Notes: a model not told the origin generated them from the letters alone. DNA of 64,000 bases from an uncultured Flavobacteriaceae bacterium (GCA_947494715.1 CANLWG010000009.1:1405-65404); one strand, 5' to 3'; counted from the stretch's first letter, positions 12,068 to 60,802 are shown. Numbers and translations are program-made.

Positions 12068-12163
12068 TTCATCGAAGAAAATGACCGTTCATCCTTTTCA
12101 CAACATTTTGTGAAGACTTCACAACAATAGTTTCCATTTAGCACAGCACTAAAGTACCTTTAC
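12068..12163 (+). promoter_or_regulatory. Three-box activator-type promoter
   Basis: TTCATCGA 12068-75; TTCACAAC 12097-104 and 12118-125 (21-bp period); TACCTTTAC 12155-163; same layout recurs three times at 55-61 kb. Confidence 0.7.
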
Positions 12164-12225
12164 AGAACAAATCAATTCAAAAGTTTCAGACCCCAAATCT
12201 GACTTTTTTCAAAACCCACAAATCT

Positions 12226-12333
12226 ATGGAAGCCCAAATGAACCATGCTCCGACCAAAGAAGAAATTCAAGTGTACAAAAACGATTTTTTTAGCGGTATT
12301 GTCATGTTGACCAAGAAACTATTTATGCTATAG
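12226..12333 (+). CDS. Small protein, 35 aa (MEAQMNHAPTKEEIQVYKNDFFSGIVMLTKKLFML), absent from ORF track
   Basis: ATG in A/C-rich context; own promoter upstream and terminator downstream. Confidence 0.55.
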   Translation: MEAQMNHAPTKEEIQVYKNDFFSGIVMLTKKLFML

Positions 12334-12354
12334 CATTTTGGTAAAAATTCTAAA

Positions 12355-12394
12355 AAAAGGAGCGGTATAACCTACACTGCTCCTTTTCTTTTTT
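12355..12394 (+). terminator. Rho-independent terminator
   Basis: aaaaggagcggt / actgctcctttt stem followed by T-tract. Confidence 0.75.
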
Positions 12395-12421
12395 CTAATT
12401 TTGGGTATGGGCCCAAACCAA

Positions 12422-12955
12422 ATGCATTTACTTCTTCAAAAATGCAACCAAAATGATTTGGATGAACTTGTTGAACTGTCCATAAGAACATTCAAGGATG
12501 CCTTTGAAGCGGATAACGACCCAGAAGACTTTAAAGACTACCTTCGTACTGCATTTCATAGGGATACCTTGTTGGCCGAGCTGCAGGATAAGGATGTAAG
12601 TTTCTACTTTGTTAAGGTTGATACCGAGACGGCGGGTTATTTTAAGCTGAATGAAGATTTGGCCCAGACCGAAGTAAAGTCGGGCAATAGCATCGAATTG
12701 GAACGCATCTATGTTCTAAATACCTTCCAAGGCTCAGGAATAGGCTCATGGATGCTTGACGAAATAAAGCAAATCGCTTTCGAAAAAGGAAAACAATTTC
12801 TTTGGTTGGGGGTATGGGAGAAGAATCGTAAGGCCATTAGGTTTTACCAGAGGCTGGGATTTACAAAATTCGGGATCCATCCCTATTTCATTGGAAAGGA
12901 CGAACAGACCGATTGGCTAATGCGGTTTGATTTGATTAATTTGGATCCTGAATAA
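12422..12955 (+). CDS. GNAT family N-acetyltransferase (PaiA-like)
   Basis: IELERIYV, FQGSGIG, WLGVWEKNRKAIRFYQRLGF; start likely ATG 12422. Confidence 0.92.
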   Translation: MHLLLQKCNQNDLDELVELSIRTFKDAFEADNDPEDFKDYLRTAFHRDTLLAELQDKDVSFYFVKVDTETAGYFKLNEDLAQTEVKSGNSIELERIYVLNTFQGSGIGSWMLDEIKQIAFEKGKQFLWLGVWEKNRKAIRFYQRLGFTKFGIHPYFIGKDEQTDWLMRFDLINLDPE

Positions 12956-12966
12956 ATTCTTTTGAA

Positions 12967-14121
12967 ATGAAGTATCCCATCTTGATTCTTTTTTATCTTT
13001 TTTCCTTTGGAACCCTTTTCGCCCAGAAAGACTATTATTTTCCTGAAAGAAACGAGGTATGGGAGATCAAGGCCCCAAACACTTTTGAAATCGATGAAAA
13101 GAAACTTCAAGAAGTAGTTGATTTTGCCTGGGAGAATGAATATTCGGGCTCAAGGGATCTCCGTATTGCCATTCTTAAAGGTTTTGAACGAGAACCTTTT
13201 CATGAAATTTTAGGCCCCACCAAAAAACGAGGTGGCCCTGCCGGAATGATTTTGAAAAATGGTTATATCATAGCCCATTGGGGGGACACAAAAAGGGTAG
13301 ACATGACCTTTAGCGTTACCAAGAGCTTTTTGAGTACGGTAGCGGGACTTGCGGAGGACCGCGGACTGATTGCCCAAACCAATGATAAGGTAGCGAACTA
13401 TATCTGGGATGGCACTTTTGATGGGGAACACAACGGAAAAATTACCTGGGAGCATTTGTTGCAACAGAACTCCGATTGGTCTGGCGAACTTTGGGGAGGA
13501 AAGGACTGGGCCGATCGCCCGCCTCGGGAAGGGGATTTGGATGATTGGAAATTCCGAAAGCTCAATGAACCGGGAACCGTAATGGAATACAATGATGTAC
13601 GCGTTAATGTGTTGGCCTATGCATTGACCCATGTATGGCGAAAACCCTTGCCTATGGTACTTAAGGAGAATATAATGGATAAAATAGGTGCTTCTACGAC
13701 CTGGAGATGGCATGGGTATGAGCATGCATGGACGGAAATCGATGGCGTTCGGATGAAATCGGTTACGGGGGGCGGACACTCGGGGGCAGGAATGTTTATT
13801 AGCACGGAGGATATGGCCCGGTTTGGTTTGTTGTTCCTCAATCAAGGAAAATGGGAGGATCAACAACTTATTAGCGAAGATTGGATAAAAAAGGCCATTT
13901 TACCTTCTAAACCCAATGTAAATTATGGTTATATGTGGTGGTTGAACAAAAAAGGCGATCGGCATTGGGAGGGGCTTTCCGAAGACATTTATTACGCAGC
14001 TGGCTTTGGAGGCAACTACATTGTTATTGACCGTGAGAACGATTTGGTGGTGGTAATGCGTTGGTTGGAGCCCAGTAAAATAGGAGAGTTTATGACTATG
14101 CTTAGCGCAGCCTTGAAATAG
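12967..14121 (+). CDS. Serine hydrolase, beta-lactamase/esterase family, secreted
   Basis: SVTK (SxxK), YND, AAGFGGN; signal peptide. Confidence 0.9.
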   Translation: MKYPILILFYLFSFGTLFAQKDYYFPERNEVWEIKAPNTFEIDEKKLQEVVDFAWENEYSGSRDLRIAILKGFEREPFHEILGPTKKRGGPAGMILKNGYIIAHWGDTKRVDMTFSVTKSFLSTVAGLAEDRGLIAQTNDKVANYIWDGTFDGEHNGKITWEHLLQQNSDWSGELWGGKDWADRPPREGDLDDWKFRKLNEPGTVMEYNDVRVNVLAYALTHVWRKPLPMVLKENIMDKIGASTTWRWHGYEHAWTEIDGVRMKSVTGGGHSGAGMFISTEDMARFGLLFLNQGKWEDQQLISEDWIKKAILPSKPNVNYGYMWWLNKKGDRHWEGLSEDIYYAAGFGGNYIVIDRENDLVVVMRWLEPSKIGEFMTMLSAALK

Positions 14122-14124
14122 ACC

Positions 14125-15285
14125 TTATTGAACGCGCCTTAGAATTTCGGTGGCCTTTTCTAAAGTATCTTCAGTTTTGGCAAAACAAAATCGCAACACT
14201 TTATCATCTCGGTTATTCAAATTGAAGGAGGATATTGCAATACTTGCCAATTTATAATCTATTATTAACCGTTGTGCTAGAATTTCGTCCGGTTCATTGG
14301 TTATTCCCGTATAATCCAGCAATTGAAAATAAGTGCCTTGGGAAGGTGTAAACTTAAATTTGGAATCGGAAAGCCTACTTAGGAAATAGTCCCTTTTTTG
14401 TTGATAAAAGTCCTTCAACTCTAAATAATGCCCTTCATTTTTCAAGTATTCCGCCATAGCTCGCTGCACGGGATGATCCACACAGAAAACGGCGAACTGG
14501 TGCGTCTTTCGGAATTCATGCATCAGTTCGGCTGGTGCGGCACAATAGCCCATTTTCCATCCGGTTACATGAAAAGTCTTCCCAAAAGAGGCGCAGACAA
14601 AACTACGAGAGGCCAAATCATCCAAGCGCGAAGCACTTTCATGTTCCTTTCCATCAAAAACAATATGCTCGTATACCTCATCACTGACTAAAATAATATT
14701 AGTATCCCGTAGACTTTCCTGGAGCTGCAACATATCGGTTTTGGAGAAAATACGTCCGCTGGGATTATGTGGGGTGTTGATGACCACCATCCTGGTCTTG
14801 GAGGTAATTTTAGTTCGGAATTCTTCCCAATCCACTTGATAATCCTTCTCCCTCAACTGGATAAGAACCGGGATGCCGCCGTTTACTTCAATGGCCGGCT
14901 CGTAACAATCATAGGCTGGCTTCAGTACAATGACCTCGTCACCAGGGTGGACAAATGCCGTGATTGCCGTAAAAATTGCCTGAGTGGCCCCGACGGTTAC
15001 CGTAATTTCTTTTTCGGGATCATAACTTCGGCCATGAAGTTTTTCTATTTTCTCCGATATGATTTCCCGAAGTCCATAATACCCCTGCATAGCCGCATAT
15101 TGGTTATGACCGTGTAGCATGGCATCGGATACCAAACCCATTAACTTTCTATCGGCTTCAAAATTGGGAAATCCCTGGGAAAGGTCAATGGCCTTATGTT
15201 TTCTGGCCAGATTGCCTACGGTAGTGAAAATGGTAGTCTTTGCATGGGGGAGTTTGGAGGGGATATTAGTCTTAAAAATTGCCAT
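14125..15285 (-). CDS. PLP-dependent class I aminotransferase (YbdL/methionine aminotransferase-like)
   Basis: DLSQGFPNF, NTPHNPSG, SDEVYEH, SFGKTFHVTGWKMGY; start likely ATG 15285. Confidence 0.93.
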   Translation of the reverse strand: MAIFKTNIPSKLPHAKTTIFTTVGNLARKHKAIDLSQGFPNFEADRKLMGLVSDAMLHGHNQYAAMQGYYGLREIISEKIEKLHGRSYDPEKEITVTVGATQAIFTAITAFVHPGDEVIVLKPAYDCYEPAIEVNGGIPVLIQLREKDYQVDWEEFRTKITSKTRMVVINTPHNPSGRIFSKTDMLQLQESLRDTNIILVSDEVYEHIVFDGKEHESASRLDDLASRSFVCASFGKTFHVTGWKMGYCAAPAELMHEFRKTHQFAVFCVDHPVQRAMAEYLKNEGHYLELKDFYQQKRDYFLSRLSDSKFKFTPSQGTYFQLLDYTGITNEPDEILAQRLIIDYKLASIAISSFNLNNRDDKVLRFCFAKTEDTLEKATEILRRVQ

Positions 15286-15348
15286 GGACACGAGTATTGC
15301 CTTAAAAATAGGCAATTTAGTACTTACTACTTCTGTGAAAAGAGATCT

Positions 15349-15630
15349 TTACTTTGAAGTTTGTAAAAATTTATGCAGGTAGTGCTTGTCTCCCTCTGCC
15401 AAAAGCTGTCTTGCCAAAGAATTGTCAAAGGCGATCCGTAGAAGCTCTTCAATTGCCCTGGAATTTGATTTTGTAAGACTGTTGGTTCTATAAATTACGT
15501 CTCTAATGGTTGAAAAACTTACACCGGTAGCTGTAGCCACATTGGCAAAATCGTCTTTGGTAGTGTTTCTTCTTAATGTCAGTGATAATTTCTCATTAAT
15601 CGGTTTTCCGTAATCCTGGTCCGTAAACAT
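15349..15630 (-). CDS. Small HTH protein, Cro-like
   Basis: ANVATATGVSFSTIRDVI helix-turn-helix pattern; divergent from S24 repressor. Confidence 0.65.
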   Translation of the reverse strand: MFTDQDYGKPINEKLSLTLRRNTTKDDFANVATATGVSFSTIRDVIYRTNSLTKSNSRAIEELLRIAFDNSLARQLLAEGDKHYLHKFLQTSK

Positions 15631-15755
15631 GGGTTGCACTGTATTAGGGGGTTAATTAAACTTATTGTATTGCGATACGTTGATTCTTTTCCAATTATAT
15701 TCCAAAGTCATAGCCTAAGCATTGTATAGTCCTGTTACGTATTTTGCTATATTTG

Positions 15756-15822
15756 TTTGTAAACGATATACAAATAATGCAACATAATTGCGTTTTTCGA
15801 CAAAATATGTAGGATTATTACA
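15756..15822. promoter_or_regulatory. Three operator-like palindromes TGYA-N7-TRCR
   Basis: TTTGTA-aacgata-TACAAA 15756-74; TGCA-acataat-TGCG 15778-92; TGTA-ggattat-TACA 15808-22; TATATTTG -7 element at 15748-55. Confidence 0.6.
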
Positions 15823-15837
15823 CAATAATACGAACTT

Positions 15838-16554
15838 ATGTTTATATTGAAGCAATTAAGGCGTAAAAAAAATATAAATCAGACCGATTTGGCCAAGGCC
15901 ATAGGGGTGAGTTTGCGTACTATTCAGATATATGAGAAAAAAGATGCCAATATTCCCAGAAAAAATCTTACAAAAATTGCGCAATATTTTGATGTCAGTA
16001 TTGCCGAACTTTATTCCCATGAGAGCGTAAATGAAACAGGGGCGGCATATGATACCACTTCAAAACTTGAAAAAGGTCATACTATTATTAAATTGGCCCC
16101 AGGCAAATATTTAGTTTCCGTTCCTCTAGTAATGACCGAGCAATATGGTATATTTTCAAAGCAATATGCCAAAAAAGGTTTTGTACACGCGTTACCAAGA
16201 ATTAGCTTTGTCGTTGACCGCGTATCCGTGTCACATTATATGGCCTTTGAAGTTTCCAATAACTCTATGGATAATGGCTCTTTGAAAAGTATCCCGTTTA
16301 AATCCATAGTTTTAGGTAAGTTGATACTATTGGACAAACTACAGGGTCATATACAAAGCAATCCCGATTGTGCCTCGATACTGGTTTACAAGGGAAATGT
16401 AATGTGCAAAGTGATTGGGGATTATGATAAAAGAAATAAAACCGTAATATGTAAAAGCCTGAACGACTCACCAGAATATTCCAATTTTAGGGTAAAAATT
16501 GAGGAGATCGAACAGTTCTATACCATCTTAGGGAAACAAATTACTCATGTGTAA
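15838..16554 (+). CDS. XRE-family HTH + peptidase S24-like domain (CI/LexA-like repressor)
   Basis: N-term NQTDLAKAIGVSLRTIQIYEK; FEVSNNSMD (Ser), MCKVI (Lys), KSLNDSPEY. Confidence 0.8.
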   Translation: MFILKQLRRKKNINQTDLAKAIGVSLRTIQIYEKKDANIPRKNLTKIAQYFDVSIAELYSHESVNETGAAYDTTSKLEKGHTIIKLAPGKYLVSVPLVMTEQYGIFSKQYAKKGFVHALPRISFVVDRVSVSHYMAFEVSNNSMDNGSLKSIPFKSIVLGKLILLDKLQGHIQSNPDCASILVYKGNVMCKVIGDYDKRNKTVICKSLNDSPEYSNFRVKIEEIEQFYTILGKQITHV

Positions 16555-16624
16555 AAGGAGATCGACCAAGTTTTTAATTTTTTATTGATATGGACTTTAT
16601 ATCTTCCATGAAAAGAGGGAAGGG

Positions 16625-17107
16625 CTAATCAGAAACCTTTTCAATCAACTTTAAATGGGAAATGACTTGGTGCAGGCAAACATCCAGCTCTTTTTTTATT
16701 TTGCTCTCCCAAAAACGAAAAACAGTATACCCAGATTTTTTTAGTTCAAGATTTACCTCTTTATCCCGTTGCATATTACGTTCTATCTTGGCAATCCAGA
16801 ATTCACGGTTGGTCTTGATCTTTGGTTTCCGTTCTTCCCAATTATGGCCGTGCCAATATTCGCCATCAATAAAAACTACCGTTTTATATTTTTTCAGGGC
16901 AATGTCAGGTTTGCCAATCAATTTCTTGTAGTCTATGCGATAGCGATATCCTGCTGCCCACAGTGCCTTTCGGAAGGCCAGCTCCGGTTTGGTATTCTTG
17001 CCCCGGATTTTGCCCATGATCTTGGAACGTTCCGGGGTAGTATAGAACCCTGATTCCTCATTGAATCGAGGCACCTTAATACGTTCTTCGGGGTAGTTTT
17101 TCGGCAT
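16625..17107 (-). CDS. vsr: Very short patch repair endonuclease
   Basis: RSKIMGKIRGKNTKPE, GKPDI, VFIDGEYWHGH, FWIAKIERNMQRD. Confidence 0.95.
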   Translation of the reverse strand: MPKNYPEERIKVPRFNEESGFYTTPERSKIMGKIRGKNTKPELAFRKALWAAGYRYRIDYKKLIGKPDIALKKYKTVVFIDGEYWHGHNWEERKPKIKTNREFWIAKIERNMQRDKEVNLELKKSGYTVFRFWESKIKKELDVCLHQVISHLKLIEKVSD

Positions 17108-17235
17108 GGTTTAAAGGTACCAAAAGTGTTTTGGAAAGGAAAGAATCCGTAAAATTTAACGAATCTTGCTACATTTAAAACTGCTCGATTTTCTCTGGTA
17201 GAAACCCTTATTTTTAGAAGATAATTTATTGGGGT

Positions 17236-18162
17236 ATGGAAAAAAGGAATCAACAACAGCTACTATATATCCATAGGATCAACAAGGTTGTAGAGTATAT
17301 TGAAAACAACCTGGATGCAGATTTATCCTTAGAAGAACTCTCTAAAATTGCCTGTTTCTCACCTTTTCATTTCCATCGCATTTTCACGGCCCTATTAGGT
17401 GAGACTCCAAATGGTTACATCACCCGTAGACGCATTGAAAAGATTGCCGGGCGATTGTTCTATCCCGGGAAAAACGAATCATTGACCCAATTGGCCCACC
17501 AATATGGCTTTAAAAGCATATACTCCTTCTCAAGGGCCTTTCGTAAATTCTATGGAATGAGTGCCACCGAGTTTCAAAAAAAGGGACAAAACGAGTTTAG
17601 CAAGATAGGCAAAATTGAAAGCAGGAAAGGAGAAAACAAAGTGTCTTTCCAGAAATACTTTTACAGCATGGATAATCTTAAAAACTGGTTACAAATGAAA
17701 ACAAAAGTAGAAGTAAAGGAAATGCCCGAATCGAAATTAGTTCACCTAAGACATCAAGGAGCATATTCCGAAATTGGAAAAGCTTATGAAAGATTAATGG
17801 AATGGGCCGGCCCCAGGGGCCTTCTAAATTTTCCACAAACCAAAATGGTGGGAATCTATTATGATAGTCCCAGGGTGACGGACGAATCAAAAATGCAGTC
17901 CAGTGCCTGTTTGACCGTTGATACCGATGTGGAAACAAATGGCGAAATAGGAAAACTTACCGTCCCCAAGGGAAGGTTTGCAGTAGGTAGTTTTCAAATT
18001 AAGGTGGAAGAGTTCGAAAAGGCGTGGAATAGCATGACGTTATGGATTCCAGAAAACAACTTTGAACTTCGGGAAGGCCATTACCATGAAATTTATCATA
18101 ATAATGGCAAGCAACATCCTGAGGGATTGTTCTTCGTGGATATCTGTATCCCAGTTCAGTAA
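17236..18162 (+). CDS. AraC family regulator with GyrI-like ligand-binding domain
   Basis: FSPFHFHRIF, FSRAFRKFYG N-term HTHs; C-term HQGAYSEIGKAYERL, EIYHN. Confidence 0.92.
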   Translation: MEKRNQQQLLYIHRINKVVEYIENNLDADLSLEELSKIACFSPFHFHRIFTALLGETPNGYITRRRIEKIAGRLFYPGKNESLTQLAHQYGFKSIYSFSRAFRKFYGMSATEFQKKGQNEFSKIGKIESRKGENKVSFQKYFYSMDNLKNWLQMKTKVEVKEMPESKLVHLRHQGAYSEIGKAYERLMEWAGPRGLLNFPQTKMVGIYYDSPRVTDESKMQSSACLTVDTDVETNGEIGKLTVPKGRFAVGSFQIKVEEFEKAWNSMTLWIPENNFELREGHYHEIYHNNGKQHPEGLFFVDICIPVQ

Positions 18163-18167
18163 AAGAA

Positions 18168-18207
18168 AAATCCCGAACTCTATTCCAGGGTCCGGGATTT
18201 GTTTTTT
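18168..18207. terminator. Bidirectional terminator between AraC gene and sdhB
   Basis: aaatcccg...cgggattt stem with A-tract before and T-tract after. Confidence 0.7.
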
Positions 18208-18224
18208 GAAATTTATCGAAGCTT

Positions 18225-18971
18225 TTATCCTTCTACGGCCGCACTTAAATATTCCCGGTTCATACGAGCAATATTTTCCAAGGAAATTCCTTTGGGGCAC
18301 TCTACTTCACAGGCACCTGTATTGGTACAGTTGCCAAAGCCCTCAAGGTCCATTTGGCGTACCATGTTCTGTACACGTTCAGTGGCTTCCACCCTACCTT
18401 GTGGTAATAGGGCAAATTGGGAAACCTTGGCGGAAGTAAACAGCATTGCACTTGCGTTTTTACAAGCAGCAACACAGGCACCACAGCCAATACAGGTAGC
18501 CGCATCCATGGCCTTGTCGGCAACATGCTTTTTAATGGGAATGGCATTGGCATCTACCGGGTTACCCGATGTGTTTACTGAAATGTAACCCCCGGCCTGT
18601 TGAATACGGTCAAAAGCGGTACGATCAACGATCAAGTCTTTGATTACAGGAAAAGCCTTGGCCCTAAACGGTTCTATTACAATGGTGTCCCCATCATTAA
18701 AACTTCGCATGTGCAGTTGACAAACGGTGATTAGTCTGTCGGGACCATGGGGTTGTCCATTGATCATTAGCGAACAGGTTCCGCAGATACCCTCCCTACA
18801 GTCATGATCGAACTCCACGGGTTCTTCTCCTTTTGCCACCAAATCCTCATTAAGGACATCCAGCATTTCTAGAAAGGACATATCCGATTCTACATTGTTC
18901 AAGGTATAATCAACGATTTTTCCTTTGGAATCCACATCTTTCTGACGCCATATTTTTAAATATATCTTCAT
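18225..18971 (-). CDS. sdhB: Succinate dehydrogenase/fumarate reductase iron-sulfur subunit
   Basis: [33 protein letters not shown]. Confidence 0.97.
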
Positions 18972-19045
18972 AACTACTTAGTTATTCGTCTTGTATCGCT
19001 TGTTGTTAGCAAAGATTTGGTGCACCTTTAACCAACAATCATCGA

Positions 19046-21049
19046 CTATTTATAACTCCTTGTCTTCACTTCTATATTCTCGTAAGTGAGTTCCTCTTTA
19101 TGCAATTTAGAATCTTTCGGTTCGCCTACATATTCCCAAGCAGCGGCATATTTAAAGTTCTTATCGTCCCGTAAGGCCTCACCCTCGGGAGTTTGGTACT
19201 CCTCCCGGAAATGTCCCCCACAAGATTCATTTCTATGCAAGGCATCTTTTGCAAAGAGTTCACCAAGCTCTAAAAAGTCGGCTACACGCCCTGCCTTTTC
19301 CAATTCTTGATTTTTATCATCAGGATTTCCGGTAATTTTTACGTTTTCCCAAAAATCCTTTCGTAATTCGGCAATTTCAGCAATGGCCTCTTTTAAATCC
19401 TTTTCATTTCGGGACATACCACATTTGTTCCACATAATTTTGCCCAACTTCTTGTGATAATAGTCCACGGAATGTAGTCCTTTGCCTGACATCAACTTTT
19501 CAATTTTTTCTCTAACCGCTTTTTCGGTGGCCTCAAATTCAGGTGCATCCGTGGGAATGGCACCTGTTCGGATATCATCGGAAAGATAATCTCCAATAGT
19601 ATATGGTAAAACAAAATACCCATCGGCCAAGCCCTGCATTAACGCGGATGCTCCCAATCTATTGGCACCATGGTCGCTAAAGTTGGCCTCTCCAGCACAA
19701 TAGCACCCAGGAATAGTAGTCTGTAGATTGTAATCTACCCAAAGTCCACCCATGGTATAGTGTACTGCCGGATAGATCATCATTGGAGTCTCGTATGGGT
19801 TTTGATCCACGATTTTTTCATACATCTGAAAAAGGTTACCGTATTTGGCTTCCACGATTTCCTTGCCCAATCTGCGAGTGGTTTCCTTGTCGGGATCTTT
19901 TATCCCTGAAGTAAAGGCTTTCTCTTTACCATAGCGCATGATGGCGGCCTCAAAATCGAGGTAAACAGCTTCACCTGTCTTGTTCACACCGTGACCGGCA
20001 TCGCAACGTTCCTTCGCAGCTCTTGAGGCAACATCGCGGGGAACCAGGTTTCCGAATGCAGGATACCGTCGCTCTAAGTAATAATCCCTATCCTCTTCTT
20101 TTAACTGGGTTGGCTTTAATTTACCTTCTCGTATGGCTTGTGCATCTTCCAAGCGTTTGGGCACCCAGATTCTACCATCATTTCGAAGGGATTCGGACAT
20201 CAAGGTCAATTTAGACTGGTGGTCTCCTGAAACGGGGATACAAGTCGGATGTATTTGTGTAAAACAGGGATTGGCGAAAAAAGCCCCTCGTTTATGGGCC
20301 TTCCATGCCGCTGTCACGTTGGCGCCCATTGCGTAGGTGGACAAAAAGAAGAGATTTCCATAACCCCCGCTAGCCAATACTACCGCATGCGCCGAATGTC
20401 GTTCAATCTCTCCGGTTACCAAGTCCCTTGCAATGATTCCACGTGCCTTTCCATCAACTAAAACCAAATCCAACATTTCATGTCGGGTATAGGATTTTAT
20501 CTTTCCTCTTTGAATTTGCCGGTTCATTGCGGCATAGGCACCTAATAACAATTGTTGTCCGGTCTGGCCCTTGGCATAAAAAGTACGGGATACCAACACG
20601 CCACCAAAGGAACGGTTATCCAAAAGCCCTCCGTACTCCCTGGCAAAAGGTACACCTTGGGCCACGCATTGGTCAATGATATTAGAAGACACTTCCGCCA
20701 ACCTATACACATTAGCCTCACGGGAACGATAATCGCCCCCTTTGACGGTATCATAAAAAAGGCGATATACGCTGTCGCCATCGCCTTGATAGTTTTTTGC
20801 TGCATTTACCCCACCTTGGGCCGCAATGGAATGGGCCCTTCTAGGAGAATCTTGATAACAGAAAGTCTTTACGTTATAACCTAGTTCTGCCAAGGTAGCC
20901 GCTGCAGAACCTCCCGCCAGACCTGTTCCTACCACAATAACATCTATATTTCGCTTATTCGCGGGGTTTACAAGGTCGATTTCATTTTTATGTTTGGCCC
21001 ATTTATCGGCCAATGGCCCCGATGGAATTTTAGAATCCAATACGCCCAT
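19046..21049 (-). CDS. sdhA: Succinate dehydrogenase/fumarate reductase flavoprotein subunit
   Basis: [31 protein letters not shown]. Confidence 0.97.
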
Positions 21050-39719: not shown

Positions 39720-39988
39720 TTTGTCGATTTTTTTTAGAGGTCGGAAAGGTAATCCAAAATTACTTTTTGTACCAAGCATAACTCCTTCCGGCCATATTCC
39801 GGATTGTTCGAAAGGTTGCACTTTATCGATTTTTTGAAAAGAAGTGCCCGCCGTACCCAATAAAAAACAGAGCTAAGACGTTGTATGCTATATAATGCTC
39901 AACAGACATTGTAAGCAGTTAACCCAAATCCAGAATTTCGTGTTCATTTGACCCCAATCATCGAATACGACTTGATAAACCTACAAGT

Positions 39989-40207
39989 ATGAAAAAGTTT
40001 TTTTGCAATCTTTTTGGCCACCATTATTCCGTGTCCAAGAAAGTCACACATCACATTAAGGAATATAAATGCATCCATTGTGGTAGAGAGGTTACCACGG
40101 ATGTCAGCGGAAATCTTTCGACCTTGACTCCAGAGTTACAGGATATTAACAAGACCTTGGAAGGTCTTTATCAAAAAAGACATAGAGCTGCACAGCAAGT
40201 AGCTTAA
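39989..40207 (+). CDS. Small DUF1660-like protein with Cys/His motif
   Basis: FCNLFGHHY...YKCIHCG. Confidence 0.8.
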   Translation: MKKFFCNLFGHHYSVSKKVTHHIKEYKCIHCGREVTTDVSGNLSTLTPELQDINKTLEGLYQKRHRAAQQVA

Positions 40208-53671: not shown

Positions 53672-53706
53672 CCGATCACTTAAATCTGAAATCTTATGTC
53701 TGAAAT
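53672..53706 (+). repeat. Right heptad array (5 x 7 nt), inverted relative to left array; contains the next gene's ATG
   Basis: ccgatca cttaaat ctgaaat cttatgt ctgaaat; ctgaaat is the reverse complement of atttcag. Confidence 0.75.
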
Positions 53707-54199
53707 AGTAAACCGTGTGGCCCAAAGCAAATTGGTCACTTTAGACTTGGAGGATTATTATCCGGAAGGCAAGAGGATTCTTTTGGACATCAAGGATTGG
53801 TTGTACGAGGGATTCATCCTCAAAGAAAAGGAATTTAGGGCCCAGGTTGCGAGCCATACATGGGAGCAGTATCAAAATTCGTATGTTGCATTAACCTGCT
53901 CAACGGATGCCATAGTCCCCGGATGGGCCTATATGCTTGTAATGACCCGTTTGCAGCCTTATGCCAAAAAAGTAGTCCAAGGAACGTTGATGGATTTGGA
54001 AACTATCCTATTCCATTCTGTAATAGAAAACTTGGATGTGGATGATTTTAGGGATAAACCGGTAATCATTAAGGGATGTACCAACAAACCCGTTCCGCCA
54101 AATGCCTATTTGTGGATAACGGCTAAACTACAAACGGTCGCCAAAAGCGTAATGTATGGTGAAGCTTGCTCTTCTGTCCCCCTTTTTAAGCGTAAATAA
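53696..54199 (+). CDS. DUF2480 family protein
   Basis: EIVNRVAQSKLVTLDLEDYYP, CSTDAIVPGWAY, SVMYGEACSSVP. Confidence 0.9.
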   Translation: MSEIVNRVAQSKLVTLDLEDYYPEGKRILLDIKDWLYEGFILKEKEFRAQVASHTWEQYQNSYVALTCSTDAIVPGWAYMLVMTRLQPYAKKVVQGTLMDLETILFHSVIENLDVDDFRDKPVIIKGCTNKPVPPNAYLWITAKLQTVAKSVMYGEACSSVPLFKRK

Positions 54200-54276
54200 T
54201 TGTTGACAACATTGTTCATTATTTGTTTACATGTTTAAATTTGTAGTTCATAAACTATAACTAAACACTAGACATT

Positions 54277-55209
54277 ATGAAAAAGTTAGTATTTGGGCTG
54301 GCAACAGCCCTTATGGTTTCTGTTGCCTCGGCACAGACACTTGAAGAGCTCAAGACCGAGCAGGCGGCCAAAAAGGATTCCGTAGCAGACATTCAGGGGA
54401 GGGTAGATGCCCTGCAGGGACAAATAGATGCCTTCCCGGGTTGGAAAAAGGGCGCCTTTGGAACCATAGGAGCGAACATTTCAGGATTCAACAATTGGTA
54501 TGCCCAGGGAACTCCCAACAACTCTTCCGGGAATATTGGGGCTACGCTCAATGCCTTTGCTAATCTAAACAAAGAAAAGTTTTTTTGGAGGAATTCAGGA
54601 AACATTAATTTGCAATGGGTAAAGTTGGATGATAAGGATAGTGATACGGATGACGAAAGTTTCAACGGCACTACGGATGTTTTTAACCTTACATCCCTTT
54701 ATGGGTATAAATTGAGCGAAAAATTTGCAATTTCGGCTTTGGGCGAATATCGAACCACGATTATAAACAATTTCAACGATCCAGGTTATTTGGATTTGGG
54801 AATCGGGGCCACGTGGACGCCCATTACGGATATGGTAGTGGTTATCCATCCGCTCAACTACAACTTTGTATTCAGTAGTGAGGACGATATTTATGAATCC
54901 TCGACCGGGGCCAAAATCTTGGTAGATTATACCCGACAAATAGGGGATATAAATTTCAAGACTAATTTTTCCACCTTCCAAAGCTATAAAAGTGGAGACC
55001 TTTCTAACTGGACATGGGTCAATTCCTTTGGATATACTTTATGGAACGGTATTGGTCTTGGATTTGAATTCGGTCTTAGGAACAACAAACAAGAAGCTTT
55101 GGATTATGCCATAAACAAGGCACCTACCCCCGATCCGGATGCGACTTTTGATAGCATTGACAATGATTTGCAGACCTACTGGATTTTTGGACTCAACTAT
55201 TCCTTTTAA
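54277..55209 (+). CDS. DUF3078 family outer-membrane protein
   Basis: Signal peptide, short coiled coil, WKKG..G, NNWYAQG; beta-strands ending NYSF; TAAATTTG promoter at 54236-43. Confidence 0.85.
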   Translation: MKKLVFGLATALMVSVASAQTLEELKTEQAAKKDSVADIQGRVDALQGQIDAFPGWKKGAFGTIGANISGFNNWYAQGTPNNSSGNIGATLNAFANLNKEKFFWRNSGNINLQWVKLDDKDSDTDDESFNGTTDVFNLTSLYGYKLSEKFAISALGEYRTTIINNFNDPGYLDLGIGATWTPITDMVVVIHPLNYNFVFSSEDDIYESSTGAKILVDYTRQIGDINFKTNFSTFQSYKSGDLSNWTWVNSFGYTLWNGIGLGFEFGLRNNKQEALDYAINKAPTPDPDATFDSIDNDLQTYWIFGLNYSF

Positions 55210-55234
55210 AATATAGGGTTTCCTAGTATAAAGT

Positions 55235-55264
55235 AAAAGACCCGACAATTTTGTCGGGTCTTTT
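55235..55264. terminator. Bidirectional terminator, perfect 14-bp inverted repeat
   Basis: aaaagacccgacaa-tt-ttgtcgggtctttt. Confidence 0.85.
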
Positions 55265-55345
55265 CTGTTAAGTAGGATACATTTAATTTGTTTGCACAGT
55301 CAAATAAAATCGAACTTTATATTCGGTAAAGATTTAGGTGGTGCC

Positions 55346-55365
55346 ATCCTGATAGCTATCAGGAT
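55346..55365. repeat. Perfect 20-bp palindrome (REP-like)
   Basis: atcctgatagctatcaggat. Confidence 0.85.
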
Positions 55366-55554
55366 CAATTTCCGTTAAGTTACGTTCTCTTCTGGGACAA
55401 TCATTAAACCTTTAAATACATTGCGAATGTAGTTTCATAGCATATGATGCTTAAATTTTTGTTGTGAAAGGAATAGAATTTGTTGTGAACAACGTTAAAA
55501 TGTGTTGTATCATCGATGAAATGCATAGAAAAGCACTTTAAACCTTTTTAAAAA

Positions 55555-55817
55555 TAAAAAAGCCCGGACTGTGGGGTTCGGGCCATTTTTTAGCTAAGTA
55601 GGTTATTGTAAAATTTGGACTAAGCTTTGTAGGTTAGAATTTTGGCTTGGGAAAACCTCCATTCTTTTCGGTTAAGTTCAAGGTGTCGATTTGGGGTCAA
55701 CACTATCACTTAATTACAATGTAAATGTAGTACGGATATGGGATTGTTCTAAATTATTGTTGTGAACCGATCCTAATTTGTGGTGAAATTTTTAACGGTC
55801 TTGTTTTATCGATGAAT
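55555..55817 (-). repeat. 263-bp direct repeat copy 1 (promoter + 19-codon sORF 55603-55662 + terminator)
   Basis: About 15 differences from 60541-60802 by manual alignment; sORF MEVFPSQNSNLQSLVQILQ. Confidence 0.92.
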
Positions 55818-55929
55818 AGCACTTTTATCTATTTGGAAACCATACTTTTTCAAATTGGGACTGTGGTATTAGTATTTAAGGCGGAACAGATCTAGTATTG
55901 TAAAATTAAGTACCTTGTAGAAATAGCGA

Positions 55930-58872
55930 ATGGAGATGAAACAATTACTTCTCCCCCCCTTATTATTTTTTTCTTCTTTTTTGATTTCGCAATCAAAAGT
56001 AGACAGTCTTCAATTGGGATTTGAAAATGCCCAAGAGGATACTGTCAAAATCCAGCTACTTCATGAGCTTTATTATGAGTTTGAAAATCGGGTTCCCCAA
56101 AGAGCCAGTGAAACGGCATTGAAAGCTTTAAGAATGGCAGAACGATCTGGTAATGGAGAATTACAGATCAAGAGCATTACCATATATGGAGACTTTTTGT
56201 ATTCCCAGTCCCAATATGATTCGGCCATAACCTTATATAACAATGCCTTGGAACTGGCACGAAAAAACCTTTCCATACTCGGAGAAACAGAGGCTCTTTT
56301 CGGATTGGGAAACACGTATTATAGAAAAGGCAATTTTGAAAAAGCAAAAGAGTTTCACCTGGAAAAATTAAATATTGCTAAAAAAGCAAAGGACAATGAA
56401 GGTATTGCCGGTTCATATAACAGTTTGGGTCTCATATATTCTGAACAGGGAGATTATACCAAAGCCATGGAATACTTTACTAAGTCATCCAAAATGTATC
56501 AGGAAGTAGGCCATTTAAAATACTACGGCATTACTTTAATGAGCATTGGTATGGTACAGCGTATGCTGGGCAATTATGAAATGGCGAAAAACTATTACCA
56601 AAAAAGCGACAGCATTCATATAAAAACAGATAATCTACTTGGGAGAGCCTACGTTTTTCATAATCTGGCCATAATCAATAAAAATACCGGAGCCTTTGAA
56701 GAAGCCATGATATATAATAACAAAGCACTGGAGAGCTTCCAAAAATTGGGGGATATAAAAAAAGTTGGGGAAGTATTTTACAACTTGGCCAGCATTCATA
56801 TGGAACAGGAGAGTTTTGCCAAGGCCATAAGCCATTATCATGAATCGCTTGATATTTCCCTAAAGGCCAATGACTCATTAATGATTGCTTTTTCCAACTG
56901 CGCCATAGGGGAATGCCATTTGCACCTTAAGGATTTCAATAAGGCAGAAAAACATTTATTGGAAGCGGTTAAAGTAGCCCAGGCTATTAATTTATATCCA
57001 ATTGAGATGGATGGGTACGAATATCTTTCCACAGTATACGAAACCCAGGGCGATTTTACCAAGGCTTATAAAAGCAAAAGCAAGTATTTAGTTTTAAGGG
57101 ATAGCCTGTACACCAAGGAAAAAAGAGAACTGGCCAATGAAATTGAGGCCAAATACCAAAATGAACAAAAGACAAAGGAAATTGCCCTTTTGGCATCCGA
57201 GAAGGATTTACAGACATTACAGTTGCAAAAACGGATAAACGAACGGAATGGTATTATTGCCTTTTCCTTGATCGTTCTCCTCTTGGCCGCACTAGTGTAC
57301 AATCAATATCGAATAAAGCAAGGAGCTAACAAACGCCTTCATGAATTGGACCGGTTAAAGTCCAATTTTTTCACCAATGTTTCGCACGAATTTAGGACAC
57401 CGTTAACATTGATCAAAGGACCCATTGAACAGCTAGAGCAAAATCCCGATGAAAAGCTGGGTGTGCCTACTATCAAGATGATGCGTCGTAACGCCAATCG
57501 CTTGCTCAATATGGTAAATCAGTTATTGGACCTTTCAAAAGTTGATGAAGGCAGCTTAAAACTAACGCCTACAGAAGGGGATGTGTATAAATGTTTGAGG
57601 GCTGCGGCATCCTCTTTCAATTCACATGCCGCCCAACGTTATATCGATTATAAGGTACGGATTCCGCAGGGTTTGTTATGGGCTTCCTTTGATTGGGATA
57701 AGCTGGAGAATATAGTTTATAATTTACTCGGGAATGCTTTCAAATTTAGCGAAGACGGATCAGGGATTTCCTTTCTTGTATCCTATAACGGCCAGGACCT
57801 TCAAATCGAGGTAGGTGATTCCGGAAAAGGTATTCCAGAGGAAAGGTTGCCTTTTATTTTTGATCGCTTCTATCAGGTAGACAGTAGTACCACTAAGGAA
57901 AAGGAAGGTTCGGGAATTGGGCTTTCGCTTTCCAAAGATTTGGTTGAGCTTATGGATGGGACAATTACCGTGATAAGCGAAGTAGGTAAAGGTACTTTTT
58001 TTACCATCCATTTGCCCATTTTGGAAATTCGGACAAGGCCCAAAGATGTGACGGAAACTAATGTGCCTTCAGATATAACGGAGGTAAGGCCCCAACCTTT
58101 CCAGCTGACCAAAGGAGATAAGAGAAATCTACCCAGCATTTTGTTGGTAGAGGATAATAGTGATATGAGACACTTCATAGGAGGGCAATTGATAAAAAAA
58201 TATAAGGTCAAAGAAGCCACAGATGGCAAGAGTGGGCTGCAAAAAGCGATTGCGGATTCTCCCGAATTGATTATCACCGACCTGATGATGCCCAAAATGG
58301 ACGGATTGGAACTTTGCAGAAAATTGAAGACCGATTTACGTACGAGCCATATTCCTGTAATAATGTTGACAGCCAAGGCAGGAATGAGCAATAAAATTGA
58401 AGGGTTGGAAACCGGGGCGGATGACTATCTCACCAAACCCTTTGATGCCAAGGAACTCATGGCGCGAACTAAAAATCTAATTGAACAACGGCAAAAACTA
58501 AGAGAACTCTATAGCACCAAAGAAACCCATATAGACCCTAAAAGGATTACCCTCACCTCTATTGATCAGAGGTTTTTGGAAGAGGTTTTGTCCCTTTTAG
58601 AAGAAAATTATTCGGACTCAAGTTTTGGGGTACCTAAAATGCAGACGGCCTTGGCCATGAGCAAGACCCAATTACATCGGAAATTAAAAGCATTGACGAA
58701 CGAGGCCCCTGGGGAGCTACTCCGGAACTTTCGTCTAAAAAGGGCCGCACAATTATTATCCCAGAAAGCGGATAACGTTACCCAGATTGCCTATAAAGTA
58801 GGTTTTAACAATCTCTCCTATTTCGCCAAATGCTTTAAGGAGCTCTATGGGGTGGCACCTTCTTCCTATTAA
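55930..58872 (+). CDS. Hybrid two-component sensor (TPR sensor, TM, HisKA, HATPase, receiver, AraC HTH)
   Basis: TPRs; NVSHEFRTPL; DKEGSGIGL-like G-box (EKEGSGIGL); LIITDLMMP; KVGFNNLSYFAKCFK. Confidence 0.96.
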   Translation: MEMKQLLLPPLLFFSSFLISQSKVDSLQLGFENAQEDTVKIQLLHELYYEFENRVPQRASETALKALRMAERSGNGELQIKSITIYGDFLYSQSQYDSAITLYNNALELARKNLSILGETEALFGLGNTYYRKGNFEKAKEFHLEKLNIAKKAKDNEGIAGSYNSLGLIYSEQGDYTKAMEYFTKSSKMYQEVGHLKYYGITLMSIGMVQRMLGNYEMAKNYYQKSDSIHIKTDNLLGRAYVFHNLAIINKNTGAFEEAMIYNNKALESFQKLGDIKKVGEVFYNLASIHMEQESFAKAISHYHESLDISLKANDSLMIAFSNCAIGECHLHLKDFNKAEKHLLEAVKVAQAINLYPIEMDGYEYLSTVYETQGDFTKAYKSKSKYLVLRDSLYTKEKRELANEIEAKYQNEQKTKEIALLASEKDLQTLQLQKRINERNGIIAFSLIVLLLAALVYNQYRIKQGANKRLHELDRLKSNFFTNVSHEFRTPLTLIKGPIEQLEQNPDEKLGVPTIKMMRRNANRLLNMVNQLLDLSKVDEGSLKLTPTEGDVYKCLRAAASSFNSHAAQRYIDYKVRIPQGLLWASFDWDKLENIVYNLLGNAFKFSEDGSGISFLVSYNGQDLQIEVGDSGKGIPEERLPFIFDRFYQVDSSTTKEKEGSGIGLSLSKDLVELMDGTITVISEVGKGTFFTIHLPILEIRTRPKDVTETNVPSDITEVRPQPFQLTKGDKRNLPSILLVEDNSDMRHFIGGQLIKKYKVKEATDGKSGLQKAIADSPELIITDLMMPKMDGLELCRKLKTDLRTSHIPVIMLTAKAGMSNKIEGLETGADDYLTKPFDAKELMARTKNLIEQRQKLRELYSTKETHIDPKRITLTSIDQRFLEEVLSLLEENYSDSSFGVPKMQTALAMSKTQLHRKLKALTNEAPGELLRNFRLKRAAQLLSQKADNVTQIAYKVGFNNLSYFAKCFKELYGVAPSSY

Positions 58873-58897
58873 CACTTTCCAAATTCCTGTTCATTCG

Positions 58898-58924
58898 GGA
58901 ACTATGCTGTTACCATCTGGAACC
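58898..58924 (+). promoter_or_regulatory. Tandem GGAACY boxes 21 bp apart (candidate AraC-domain binding site)
   Basis: ggaact 58898-903 and ggaacc 58919-924 between the sensor gene and its downstream gene. Confidence 0.45.
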
Positions 58925-59010
58925 TTACTATTAGCCATTCGAGCACGCAAGCCATAGTTTTGACATATCTGGTCCCCTAAAATCAATTATTCATTCTAAA
59001 GGAGGTAACT

Positions 59011-60009
59011 ATGGAATTAACAAGACAAAACCGAAGGGGTATTGTATTCAATGCGCTGTACAAATTAATTCCCCAGGCCTTACTGTTAATCGCTTTTTTT
59101 GCGATGATAATATGTTTAACGCTATTATTGAGTTGTAGCAACGGGGATGATACAACGGGTTCGCAAGGTGCCGGAATAGGTGATGTAATGGGGTCGGTAG
59201 AAGATGAGAATGGGAACCCATATCCCAATACTGTAGTAAAACTTTCTACGGGTGCAGCTTTCATCGAAACAAAAACCGATTCCAATGGAAATTTTGACTT
59301 TAATGATGTTGCCGGGGGAACACATGAAGTTACCATAAGTCTTCCATTATCTACAGAGGGAGTTACCAATACCTCCACCGCCATTAATGTTCAGGACAAT
59401 CAAACGATTACGGTTGATTTTGTCATCCGCCCTTTGCAAGTAAAGGCACACTTAAATTTTGGTAATGTACAATTACTGGAGGAAATAAAAGATGAGAACG
59501 GAAACACACCTACTGATCCCGATGAGCCCTTGTATGCTGAGAATATCTTTGATGAACCATTGGGTCTTTTAACGGCAATCAAGACTCCGGATGGCGAACA
59601 TGTTACACTATCCGAATTTAAAACGGCCCAAGGAAATCTGATGGTGCATTGCAATGGAGACACTTCCATTGTCGAAATTGCCTTAGAAGGTATGATACCT
59701 AACGGAACCTATACATTTTGGCTCGCCTATCTCAATAAAACAAGAAGCGTGGGCGAGCCCATAGACTTTGCAAATGATTTTGTCAATTTCACAAACCCTC
59801 CCATTGGATCTGCGTCAGGTACGGAAAATATAGTTGTAGCTACTGAAGATGGAACCATTAACACATCACTTCAACATACTTCCTGCATTCTAACGGACGA
59901 GGTTGCTCTTGTTATTCCTGTGCTGTACCATATCAATGGAAAGACGTTTGGAGGTGGACATGTGCCGGATCCCGAGGAAATGGTTCAAATGTTGGCTTAC
60001 TTTCAATGA
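59011..60009 (+). CDS. Lipoprotein with carboxypeptidase-regulatory-like (Ig-like) domain and uncharacterised C-terminal domain
   Basis: Lipobox LSC; GSVEDENGNP...TDSNGNFDFNDV; C-term GMIPNGTYTFW, LYHINGKTFG. Confidence 0.8.
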   Translation: MELTRQNRRGIVFNALYKLIPQALLLIAFFAMIICLTLLLSCSNGDDTTGSQGAGIGDVMGSVEDENGNPYPNTVVKLSTGAAFIETKTDSNGNFDFNDVAGGTHEVTISLPLSTEGVTNTSTAINVQDNQTITVDFVIRPLQVKAHLNFGNVQLLEEIKDENGNTPTDPDEPLYAENIFDEPLGLLTAIKTPDGEHVTLSEFKTAQGNLMVHCNGDTSIVEIALEGMIPNGTYTFWLAYLNKTRSVGEPIDFANDFVNFTNPPIGSASGTENIVVATEDGTINTSLQHTSCILTDEVALVIPVLYHINGKTFGGGHVPDPEEMVQMLAYFQ

Positions 60010-60063
60010 TTGGCAGGGTCAAATAAAATTCAATAGTTCCCAAAATATAACATCATTTAAAAA

Positions 60064-60543
60064 TTGAAGAACATGGAAATGAAAAGAAACAAAGAAGCGC
60101 GTATTGTTTTGAATACAGTACAAAGAGTTATGGCAACCTTTCTACTTGTAATGGTTTTAGCCAATTGCAGCAAAGATGATGCCGCTCCAGAAAGTTCTAT
60201 TAGGCTGGGTGCCTTGAGTCTTTCCGAGAATGGGGATTGCAATCACAGCAGTGGGGTAACGGGAACCTCATTTGGAATTTTGATTCCATATAGCGGTACT
60301 CAGGACGATACGCTTATCCGAATATTATATAAACTTATCCCTGAAGGAGGGGATGCAATTGAGCGTACAGCAAATTATAATGATTTTTCCTTAAAGGATG
60401 GAAGCGGGGAAATGACATGGAACTCCTGTTTGCGTTTTTTTGATGTGAGCTTTATTGATTTGGAAATACGTATAGAAACTGCGGATGGGATAATAAGCAG
60501 TGTGTCCAAAATAAAGATTAACAAACCCGATGGTGCCAATTAA
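60064..60543 (+). CDS. Hypothetical lipoprotein
   Basis: Lipobox LANC-SKDD; start possibly ATG 60073. Confidence 0.75.
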   Translation: MKNMEMKRNKEARIVLNTVQRVMATFLLVMVLANCSKDDAAPESSIRLGALSLSENGDCNHSSGVTGTSFGILIPYSGTQDDTLIRILYKLIPEGGDAIERTANYNDFSLKDGSGEMTWNSCLRFFDVSFIDLEIRIETADGIISSVSKIKINKPDGAN

Positions 60544-60802
60544 AAAAGCCCGGACTGTGAGGTTCGGGCTTTTTTTAGCTAAGTAGGTTATTGTAAAATT
60601 TGGACTAAGCTTTGTAGGTTAGAATTTTGGTTTGGGGAAACCTCCATTCTTTTCGGTTAAGTTCAAAGTGCTGGTTTGGGGTCAACACTATCACTTAATT
60701 ACAATGTAAATGTAGTACGGATATGGGACTGTTCTAAATTATTGTTGTGAACCGATCTTAATTTGTAGTGAAAATTTTAACGGTCTTATTTCATCGATGA
60801 AT
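60541..60802 (-). repeat. 262-bp direct repeat copy 2 (promoter + 19-codon sORF 60588-60647 + bidirectional terminator)
   Basis: Near-identical to 55555-55817; sORF MEVSPNQNSNLQSLVQILQ; terminator aaaaaagcccggac...gttcgggcttttttt. Confidence 0.92.

Follow-up and report, generated by a model that had tools for sequence, protein, structure and literature searches.

Four units with a shared LytTR-type promoter in a Flavobacteriaceae genome: predicted small RNA families, a micropeptide gene and a candidate RNA partner

In Staphylococcus aureus, the agr P3 promoter of RNAIII and the AgrA-dependent psm genes are controlled by a LytTR regulator on two repeats about 21 bp apart. Sets of sibling small RNAs (sRNAs) under one response regulator are known from Qrr1-5 (LuxO), RsmX/Y/Z (GacA) and PrrF1/2, and sRNA sponges or decoys from the pairs SroC-GcvB, AgvB-GcvB and chb-ChiX. 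The Flavobacteriaceae are major marine polysaccharide degraders and fish pathogens whose post-transcriptional control is little known, and we know of no Hfq- or ProQ-type chaperone in the Bacteroidota. Rfp13, a 73-nt RNA of Flavobacterium psychrophilum with a mapped start, is located beside sodA and is 'induced under iron depletion' (Guerin et al. 2021, PMC9723704). Its paralogue in the same species, Rfp15, is located after purF (PMC9723704 supplements). The evidence on Rfp13 in that study consists of induction under iron depletion and computational target predictions only, and it is the only publication in which we found Rfp13 mentioned. In this work we describe four transcription units, U1 to U4, that lie between positions 12,068 and 60,802 of a stretch of 64,000 nucleotides from an uncultured Flavobacteriaceae bacterium (GCA_947494715.1, CANLWG010000009.1:1405-65404), hereafter the window. 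An initial annotation of the window had presented them as a multicopy sRNA or micropeptide regulon under a three-box, LytTR-like promoter.

We consider it fairly probable that U1-U4 are separate genes of one regulon, with a LytTR protein as activator, transcripts that display C-rich loops, and the Rfp13 family as the best candidate partner of these RNAs. The analysis brings forward two sRNA families absent from Rfam, a family of 35-aa proteins and a predicted antagonism towards Rfp13.

Four units behind one promoter layout

The promoter of U1 (12068..12163, plus strand) contains an upstream TTCATCGA box at 12068-12075, two copies of TTCACAAC at 12097-12104 (box 1) and 12118-12125 (box 2), and a -7 element, TACCTTTAC, at 12155-12163. 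The same elements recur on the minus strand in the other three units. In the U2 promoter (55423..55520), the TTCATCGA box at 55513-55520 lies within TTCATCGATGA (55510-55520), followed by box 1 at 55482-55489, box 2 at 55461-55468 and the -7 element TACATTCGC at 55423-55431. The U3 promoter (55721..55816) has TTCATCGA at 55809-55816, TTCACCAC as box 1 at 55780-55787, TTCACAAC as box 2 at 55759-55766 and TACATTTAC as -7 element at 55721-55729. In the U4 promoter (60706..60801), the TTCATCGA box at 60794-60801 is part of the palindrome TTCATCGATGAA (60790-60801), with TTCACTAC as box 1 at 60765-60772, box 2 at 60744-60751 and again TACATTTAC at 60706-60714. Boxes 1 and 2 are 21 bp apart from start to start in all four units, as the initial annotation had reported, and in each of them 29 nt separate box 2 from the -7 element, counted from the last base of the box to the T of TAC; the invariant 30 nt given previously for this distance is real, the difference being one base of counting. 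A TTTAG element resembling a -33 element follows box 2 by no more than 5 nt. Direct inspection and pattern counting found the boxes, the -7 element and the terminal hairpin of all four units in the places described for them.

The composite pattern TTCAYCGA-N15-35-TTCACNAC-N10-16-TTCACAAC matched four times in the window, against 0.00 matches expected from 100 shuffles. The genome-wide motif scan that had been proposed as a check, run with this strict pattern over the 5.97-Mb genome, returned four matches, all of them U1-U4, and none for the reversed control. The repeat layout TTCACAAC(A)-N12/13-TTCACAAC(A) is common to U1-U4 and to orthologous promoters of other genera, and promoters with identical boxes, spacing and transcript start ATTGTAATTAAGTGATAGTGTT were found in Muriicola, Maribacter, Pricia, Arenibacter, Spongiimicrobium, Zeaxanthinibacter and others. 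LytTR promoters of the AgrA/ComE/AlgR type are characterised by a pair of imperfect ~9-bp direct repeats with 12-13 bp between them, placed directly upstream of the core promoter at a fixed distance.

The -7 motif of Bacteroidetes is TAnnTTTG, and the TACnTTYRC element of U1-U4 fits it. This element is also shaped like TACTTTTAC, found ahead of the Rfp13 start mapped in F. psychrophilum (PMC9723704 supplement). The units would be transcribed, from predicted starts, by a sigma-A-type Bacteroidetes promoter with TTTAG-like -33 and TAnnTTTA/G-like -7 elements, and this promoter would need an activator that occupies a pair of 9-bp direct repeats, TTCACAACA, which are 21 bp apart and abut the -33 element. 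A promoter for an extracytoplasmic function (ECF) sigma factor was also considered in U3 (GAAC...CGTA) and was dropped because this stretch is not kept in other genera.

With regard to the three-box promoter of the initial annotation, the upstream box is indeed present in U1-U4, but there is no clear sign that the repeat has a third copy here: the box forms a palindrome in U2, U3 and U4 (core TCATCGATGA, extended to TTCATCGATGAA in U4) and is widespread between genes. The sequence GCATTTCATCGA is found at 15 genomic sites, all of them intergenic, and in many cases as direct repeats with 21-bp spacing. The third box is probably a separate element, the site of another factor, with the same regulator motif as GCATTTCATCGA.

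Downstream of the promoters, the leader motif GACCCCAAAYC, described earlier as common to all units, is found in U1, U3 and U4, and GUCCCAG stands in its place in U2. A hairpin followed by a T-run marks the 3′ end of every unit. A simple terminator scan flagged that of U2 on the transcribed strand and the hairpin of U3 on the plus strand only, leaving U1 and U4 unflagged; the 3′ hairpins with U-runs of U1, U3 and U4 were seen with RNAfold, at -9 to -15 kcal/mol. Rfam gave no match at gathering scores over the whole window, so that no family accounts for the units at that threshold, and relaxing E to 10 for positions 55200-55900 gave weak, terminator-driven matches only.

The U1 transcript (12168..12395, plus strand, from its predicted 5′ end) carries CCCCAAAUC in a leader hairpin, CAGACCCCAAAUCUG, at 12187-12201, followed by an open reading frame (ORF) of 35 codons at 12226-12333, with the product MEAQMNHAPTKEEIQVYKNDFFSGIVMLTKKLFML, and by a hairpin with U-run at 12359-12395. 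Five genomes of the genus have the same promoter, and it is also present, with both boxes, in another genus (L198). The frame is kept in L198 and in a diverged member of the genus (L197), with in-frame deletions of 3 and 6 nt and mainly synonymous changes; within the genus, the ORF has undergone 5 synonymous and 3 non-synonymous changes. Among 1.84 billion representatives, we found 14 cluster representatives of this ~35-aa family (32-36 aa, some called with longer N-termini), which follow the pattern M[ED]AQ.N..P..EE[IV]QVY[RK]NDF.SGI..L.KKLFML. The 35-aa protein has no Pfam match. These comparisons indicate that U1 is a real small-protein gene, whose mRNA encodes a conserved product of 35 aa. 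Where the initial annotation proposed sibling sRNAs or dual-function RNAs, the set is therefore mixed, with three predicted sRNAs (the siblings U3 and U4, and U2 as a second sRNA type) and one micropeptide mRNA.

U3 (~160 nt, 55556..55716, minus strand, from its predicted 5′ end) and its sibling U4 (60542..60701, minus strand) make up type A. They are ~94% identical and flank a 5-kb cassette. Their helix P1 joins UUAAGU with ACUUAA and is 95% paired over 17 sequences, with compensatory changes. In U3, a hairpin P2 exposes the 7-nt loop CCCCAAA within CCCCAAAUC (55688-55696), and the corresponding loop of U4 is CCCCAAACC (60673-60681). A second hairpin with a C-rich loop follows P2, and then come, in U3, ACCAAAUUUUACAA, CCUACUUAG and the terminator (55556-55583; 60542-60569 in U4); ACCAAAUUUUACAA and CCUACUUA are single-stranded in type A, downstream of both hairpins. 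The predicted fold of U3, in which CCCCAAA is a loop, has an energy of -33.8 kcal/mol (z -2.86). R1, a covariance model built on the 5′ domain of type A, scores U3 at 76 bits and U4 at 72.1 bits and matches in 15 of 151 Flavobacteriaceae genera, in 1-3 copies each, a count that misses diverged variants such as the Flagellimonas type.

Both units contain an ORF of 19 codons, which differs between the two copies by the F/S and S/N substitutions described initially. The caveat against strong selection on this peptide was well placed: the ATG is changed to ACG in the U4 copy of a 99%-identical strain (L005), other genera have neither the ATG nor the frame, and their indels are not multiples of three. 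The 19-codon peptide was rejected, since its reading frame is not kept across species. In view of the missing conserved ORF, the covarying P1, the unpaired motif, and a promoter and terminator of their own, U3 and U4 are, as far as comparative analysis can tell, sibling sRNA genes. Rfp11 of F. psychrophilum, considered as a homologue of type A, has a similar 5′ end (GUUAAGUG), but its C-rich loops are absent and its promoter spacing is different, and it was set aside. A literature search for the conserved 12-mers found no occurrence.

U2 represents type B, a predicted sRNA of ~185 nt (55231..55417, minus strand, from its predicted 5′ end) that contains GUCCCAG, ACUUAAC, the type-B-specific block AAGUUCGAUUUUAUUUGACUGUGCA and CCUACUUAAC, and ends in the terminator flagged by the scan (55235-55264). 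Type B usually comes behind type A, an order conserved in Maribacter-like loci and in others (L023, L024, L143, L145, L149, L154, L161), and promoters of the U2 type also stand ahead of type B units in other genera. Types A and B, which differ downstream of the promoter, are on this evidence distinct conserved RNA families.

The candidate LytTR activator and its probable wider regulon

The genome, whose contigs are denoted here G000:C1 and so on, encodes 33 LytTR proteins, and all of their genes lie outside the window (C9:1405-65404), in agreement with the statement that the window itself encodes none. One of them, at G000:C1:878452-879198, is a response regulator with REC and LytTR domains (Pfam Response_reg and LytTR, PF04397; LytTR 64.9 bits). 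It is followed, after a spacer of 770 bp, by a gene for a kinase with the Pfam domain order TPR-HisKA_2-HATPase_c (C1:879973-881940). The spacer between the two genes contains two box-pair promoters with 29 nt to the -7 element. The presence of the same boxes in the kinase promoter implies positive autoregulation. The spacer region includes an sRNA-like unit of ~130 nt, at G000:C1:879276-879450 on the plus strand, which has GACACAAC-N13-TTCACAAC, a -7 element TACTTTAG 29 nt downstream and a terminator, with no C-rich loop. Genus G131 has four box pairs ~216 bp apart after the regulator gene.

This regulator was found in 33 of the 151 genera; its identity in 25 other genera is 88-93%, and 14 of the 15 type-A-positive genomes have it. 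In 25 of 30 genera, the regulator gene is separated from the kinase gene by a spacer with a same-strand box pair. Genomes with the regulator contain ~6 box pairs on average (at most one mismatch), against ~0.2 in genomes that lack it and ~0.2 for the reversed control. Of the 33 regulator-positive genomes, 30 had three or more box pairs, against 1 of the 118 regulator-negative ones (Fisher p=4e-27, kinship ignored). With up to two mismatches allowed, the genome under study has 20 box pairs, of which at least 17 are intergenic, though intergenic DNA makes up 12% of the genome.

The inference of a LytTR activator is well supported because the layout of regulator, boxes and kinase, their co-occurrence and the conservation of the regulator all point to it. 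The REC-LytTR protein encoded at C1 is most likely the activator of the U1-U4 promoters, paired with the TPR-HisKA_2 sensor kinase; it would bind the box pairs in response to a signal sensed by that kinase. The comparative data, with a layout conserved in most of the genera surveyed and a marked co-occurrence, are in this way consistent with the single LytTR-type activator, encoded outside the window, that the initial annotation had postulated.

Box pairs also precede genes for a secreted 682-aa protein (leader UUGACCCCCAAAUU), an ECF sigma factor, a ROK-family kinase and a PAS kinase, which are likely other members of the regulon; several of these leaders contain C-rich motifs. A related pair, TTCACGACA-N12-TTCACGACA, was found ahead of an operon at G000:C6:191601-193035 (plus strand) that comprises an ankyrin-like gene and ends in one for a membrane-bound LytTR protein of 246 aa, with membrane helices at the N-terminus and the LytTR domain at the C-terminus. 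This operon looks like a membrane-tethered, autoregulated LytTR system. The targets of flavobacterial LytTR regulators are almost wholly uncharted, and the circuit proposed here provides a named candidate, a DNA site and a geometry for one of them. A literature search found nothing on LytTR-controlled sRNAs in flavobacteria.

Rfp13 as candidate partner and alternative explanations

A search of intergenic DNA with CCCCAAATC led to five tandem units of ~208 bp each between sodA and purF (G000:C3:193480-194400, equivalent to L115:880-1800, minus strand). Each copy encodes a predicted sRNA of ~70 nt that contains ACCAUAGCAUAAGUAGGUUAAGUUCAUGGUAAGAUUUGGGG followed by a terminator. The position of these genes matches the synteny of Rfp13 and Rfp15 (sodA, purF), and the core AAGUAGGUUAAGUUCAUGGUAAGAUUUGGGG is identical. 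By identity of hairpin and seed, terminator and synteny, the five tandem genes are members of the Rfp13 family. The cluster has no Rfam match. The core AAGTAGGTTAAG-N4-14-GATTTGGG was found in 121 of the 151 Flavobacteriaceae genera, mostly in 2-5 tandem copies, so this candidate partner is present in ~80% of the genera of the family. Evidence of transcription was sought in X20, the one RNA sequencing run found to include a near-identical strain, which was available as assembled contigs only, with depths of 3-14. One contig of 65 nt consists of 22 nt of Illumina adapter and 43 nt of an Rfp13-like copy (L115:1723-1765), ending exactly at the predicted 5′ end (CCAUAGC...), and the flanking sodA and purF have depth 0 in this run.

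Some features of the Rfp13-like genes were recorded in their own right. Their copies have the -7 element TATGTTTG and, just upstream of -33, TTCAACCA-N12-TTCATCCA boxes 20 bp apart, a spacing that suggests a paralogous regulator binding direct repeats. Just upstream of the first copy there is a perfect palindrome, ATCGATGAAATGCAC-AAATTT-GTGCATTTCATCGAT (G000:C3:194425-194465), which represents the same regulator motif as the third box of U1-U4. In addition, a partial antisense version of the core, CCCAAATCTTACCATAGCTAACC, is fused to a conserved, structured-looking GCGCGTGGATCCTG...GGTAGATAAGCG at G000:C2:433926-434200 (plus strand) and G000:C1:204001-204170 (minus strand), the C2 site adjoining a relaxase-like gene; these fusions may be what remains of the attachment site of a mobile element with Rfp13 genes as its target, or they may belong to an RNA element of another kind.

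The Rfp13-like RNAs have an unpaired stretch, GAUUUGGGG, that is perfectly complementary to the CCCCAAAUC loops of U1 and U3, the loop of U4 being CCCCAAACC. Type A has two C-rich loops plus the blocks AACUUAACC and CCUACUUA, and the Rfp13-like blocks GGUUAAGUUC and UAAGUAGG are complementary to GAACUUAACC and CCUACUUA of type A. The predicted duplexes with the Rfp13-like RNA, computed without regard to accessibility, have energies of -38.1 kcal/mol for U3 (z -5.7 vs shuffles), -34.8 kcal/mol for U4 (z -4.4), -31.1 kcal/mol for U1 (z -3.4) and -22.8 kcal/mol for U2, the last of which is not significant (z -0.8). When 9,932 intergenic windows were ranked by duplex energy, setting aside the antisense of the Rfp13 genes themselves, U3 came 2nd and U4 was the 5th locus. 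Duplex energies were used for this ranking in place of 7-mer clustering, which for genome-wide Rfp13 target sites was dominated by heptad repeat arrays. Long intergenic arrays of such 7-nt repeats (CACTTAC or CTCTTAC) are located at G000:C7:149816-150124, C6:3-83, C1:501517-501593, C1:1077304-1077373 and C20:46283-46453.

Complementarity to the Rfp13-family core, in partial form, was also observed in the leader (39906-39990, plus strand) of a DUF1660-like gene at 39989-40207. It involves AACCCAAAUCC, UUGACCCCAAUC and AAACCUACAAGUAUG, the last of which spans the start codon, and there are no TTCACAAC boxes upstream of this leader. The DUF1660-like mRNA is a possible target of Rfp13-type sRNAs.

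For the sRNAs of the regulon, the most likely mode of action would be base pairing by means of the C-rich loops (CCCCAAAUC in U3, CCCCAAACC in U4). The best candidate partner would be the Rfp13-family sRNA, through its seed GAUUUGGGG, and the regulon would then titrate Rfp13 or be controlled by it. Genuine pairing of U3 and U4 with Rfp13 in the cell is in our view possible but rather doubtful. The same tentative standing, perhaps a shade lower, applies to the more specific proposal that the type A sRNAs, and perhaps the U1 leader, are dedicated sponges or antagonists of Rfp13, with the LytTR system gating an iron-starvation RNA response via CCCCAAAUC-GAUUUGGGG pairing.

Several points weigh against the account of one LytTR-driven regulon with Rfp13 as its partner. 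As regards the RNAs, the P2 helix is 65% paired in the alignment of type A sequences, U2 is without significant Rfp13 complementarity, and the duplex energies ignore accessibility. The pairing may be coincidental, ACUUAAC being already constrained by P1, and no covariation test is possible because the Rfp13 seed is invariant. As regards expression, U1 has depth 0 in X20; U2 reaches 5x and a U3/U4-like copy 11.8x, with many neighbouring genes at similar depth, and the contigs extend beyond the predicted transcript ends at low, patchy depth. The unit of a relative was not found in any listed RNA run. As regards the activator, 19 regulator-positive genomes gave no type A match, and one type-A-positive genome (83% complete) lacks the regulator. 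Any other regulator confined to the same clade would give the same co-occurrence, and the Fisher tests were not phylogeny-corrected. Finally, the AraC-type sensor described below, which adjoins units in several genera, could have a local role.

The best-surviving alternative accepts the regulon and proposes that the C-rich loops act on G-rich mRNA sites, in the manner of RsaE/RoxS, or bind a protein, the match to Rfp13 being incidental. C-rich hairpin loops are a common seed design of sRNAs, and the significant complementarity does not extend to U2. The similar C-rich motifs in other box-pair transcripts and in the unrelated leader at 39906-39990 may indicate that these RNAs have a protein or an mRNA as common partner. 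Against this stand the two exact 9-mers, which are both conserved across genera and both predicted to be unpaired, and the high duplex ranks of U3 and U4 among the intergenic windows. We judge this alternative unlikely, although it deserves serious consideration.

A second alternative assigns the activator role to a hybrid two-component sensor of 980 aa (55930..58872, plus strand), in which Pfam recognises TPR, HisKA, HATPase, REC and AraC helix-turn-helix domains; in this account its AraC domain would recognise the 21-bp-spaced repeats and activate the sRNA gene divergent from the sensor as well as those nearby. AraC-family proteins typically occupy direct repeats ~21 bp apart, and the sensor gene is divergent from U3 and located between U3 and U4. 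Together with a CarboxypepD_reg-like gene (59011-60009) and a gene for a 159-aa protein of no known family (60064-60543), it forms the 5-kb cassette between the two type A copies (window 55555-60802). The window stems from a marine flavobacterium similar to Ulvibacterium marinum, and its sensor is 99% identical to the one at the U. marinum CCMM003 locus. Ulvibacterium, Flagellimonas, Allomuricauda, Muriicola and a further genus, G042, have the sensor next to type A units, with the same divergent layout in the last four, and a unit lies within ~4 kb of nearly all close sensor homologues found. However, close orthologues (57-77% identity over the C-terminal half) were present in 6 of the 15 type-A-positive genomes, and the other nine, with type A and well-kept boxes, had no homologue above 44% identity over the kinase-REC-AraC half, or no match.

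The synteny of the units argues in the same direction. In the window, U4 comes directly after hflX (60832-62043, minus strand), and U2 is convergent with a gene for a DUF3078 outer-membrane-type protein recognised by Pfam (54277..55209, plus strand). The order hflX, type A in one or two copies, type B and the opposite-strand DUF3078 gene is found in about ten genera, none of which has such a hybrid sensor within 7 kb of the units, and in most other genera the two type A copies are in tandem, ~300 bp apart, between hflX and the DUF3078 gene. Ancestrally, the units belong in the hflX-DUF3078 spacer. Any such sensor is also far from U1 and from the box pairs next to the gene of the LytTR regulator. 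The AraC-type sensor was rejected as general activator on the orthologue and synteny surveys; on this evidence it is a neighbour of the units, and its part as their activator is quite improbable.

The remaining alternative, that the units are 5′ leaders or attenuators of downstream genes or repeated remnants of mobile sequence, could appeal to the ~94% identical repeats U3 and U4 around the 5-kb cassette and to the same-strand GNAT gene downstream of U1, but is very improbable given the strong hairpin and U-run that end every unit, the convergent gene or further unit, and no same-strand gene, downstream of U2-U4, the promoter and RNA kept at one syntenic site across genera with gene-like divergence and compensatory changes in P1, and the absence of transposase genes and terminal inverted repeats.

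Elsewhere in the window, a gene of the '23S rRNA intervening sequence protein' family (four-helix bundle) was noted at 10889-11254 (plus strand), between CoA-transferase subunit genes at 10154-10855 and 11220-11936.

Comparison with described systems

The proposed LytTR regulon resembles the agr system of S. aureus in that LytTR repeats, with binding here predicted, lie beside the core promoters of regulatory RNA and very small protein genes, in that the two-component system would be autoregulated from the same kind of site, and in that C-rich hairpin loops serve as seeds, here as candidates. It differs from agr in its Bacteroidota -33/-7 promoters, in a kinase of the TPR-HisKA_2 type that is not AgrC, and in RNA genes that are present in several copies and not linked to that of the regulator; the two systems are not similar in sequence, and no AgrB/AgrD-like peptide signal genes were seen at the regulator locus.

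As in Qrr, Rsm and PrrF, paralogous sRNA genes share a promoter type, single-stranded motifs and intrinsic terminators, and the copy number varies (1-3 for type A). Unlike in those systems, the activator would belong to the LytTR class, the motif is CCCCAAAUC, a micropeptide gene and a second RNA type are added, and no chaperone is known.

With respect to Rfp13 and Rfp15, U1, U3 and U4 hold the complement of the core and not the core itself, which makes Rfp13 a putative partner and not a homologue. As in the sponges SroC, AgvB and chb, the type A RNAs have sites complementary to the seed of another sRNA, although titration is here only predicted. The candidate antagonist would here be a dedicated, separately regulated, multi-copy gene and not a fragment of an mRNA. 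If the pairing is real, it would provide the first interaction partner for Rfp13 and an example of a dedicated sRNA antagonist under regulation of its own.

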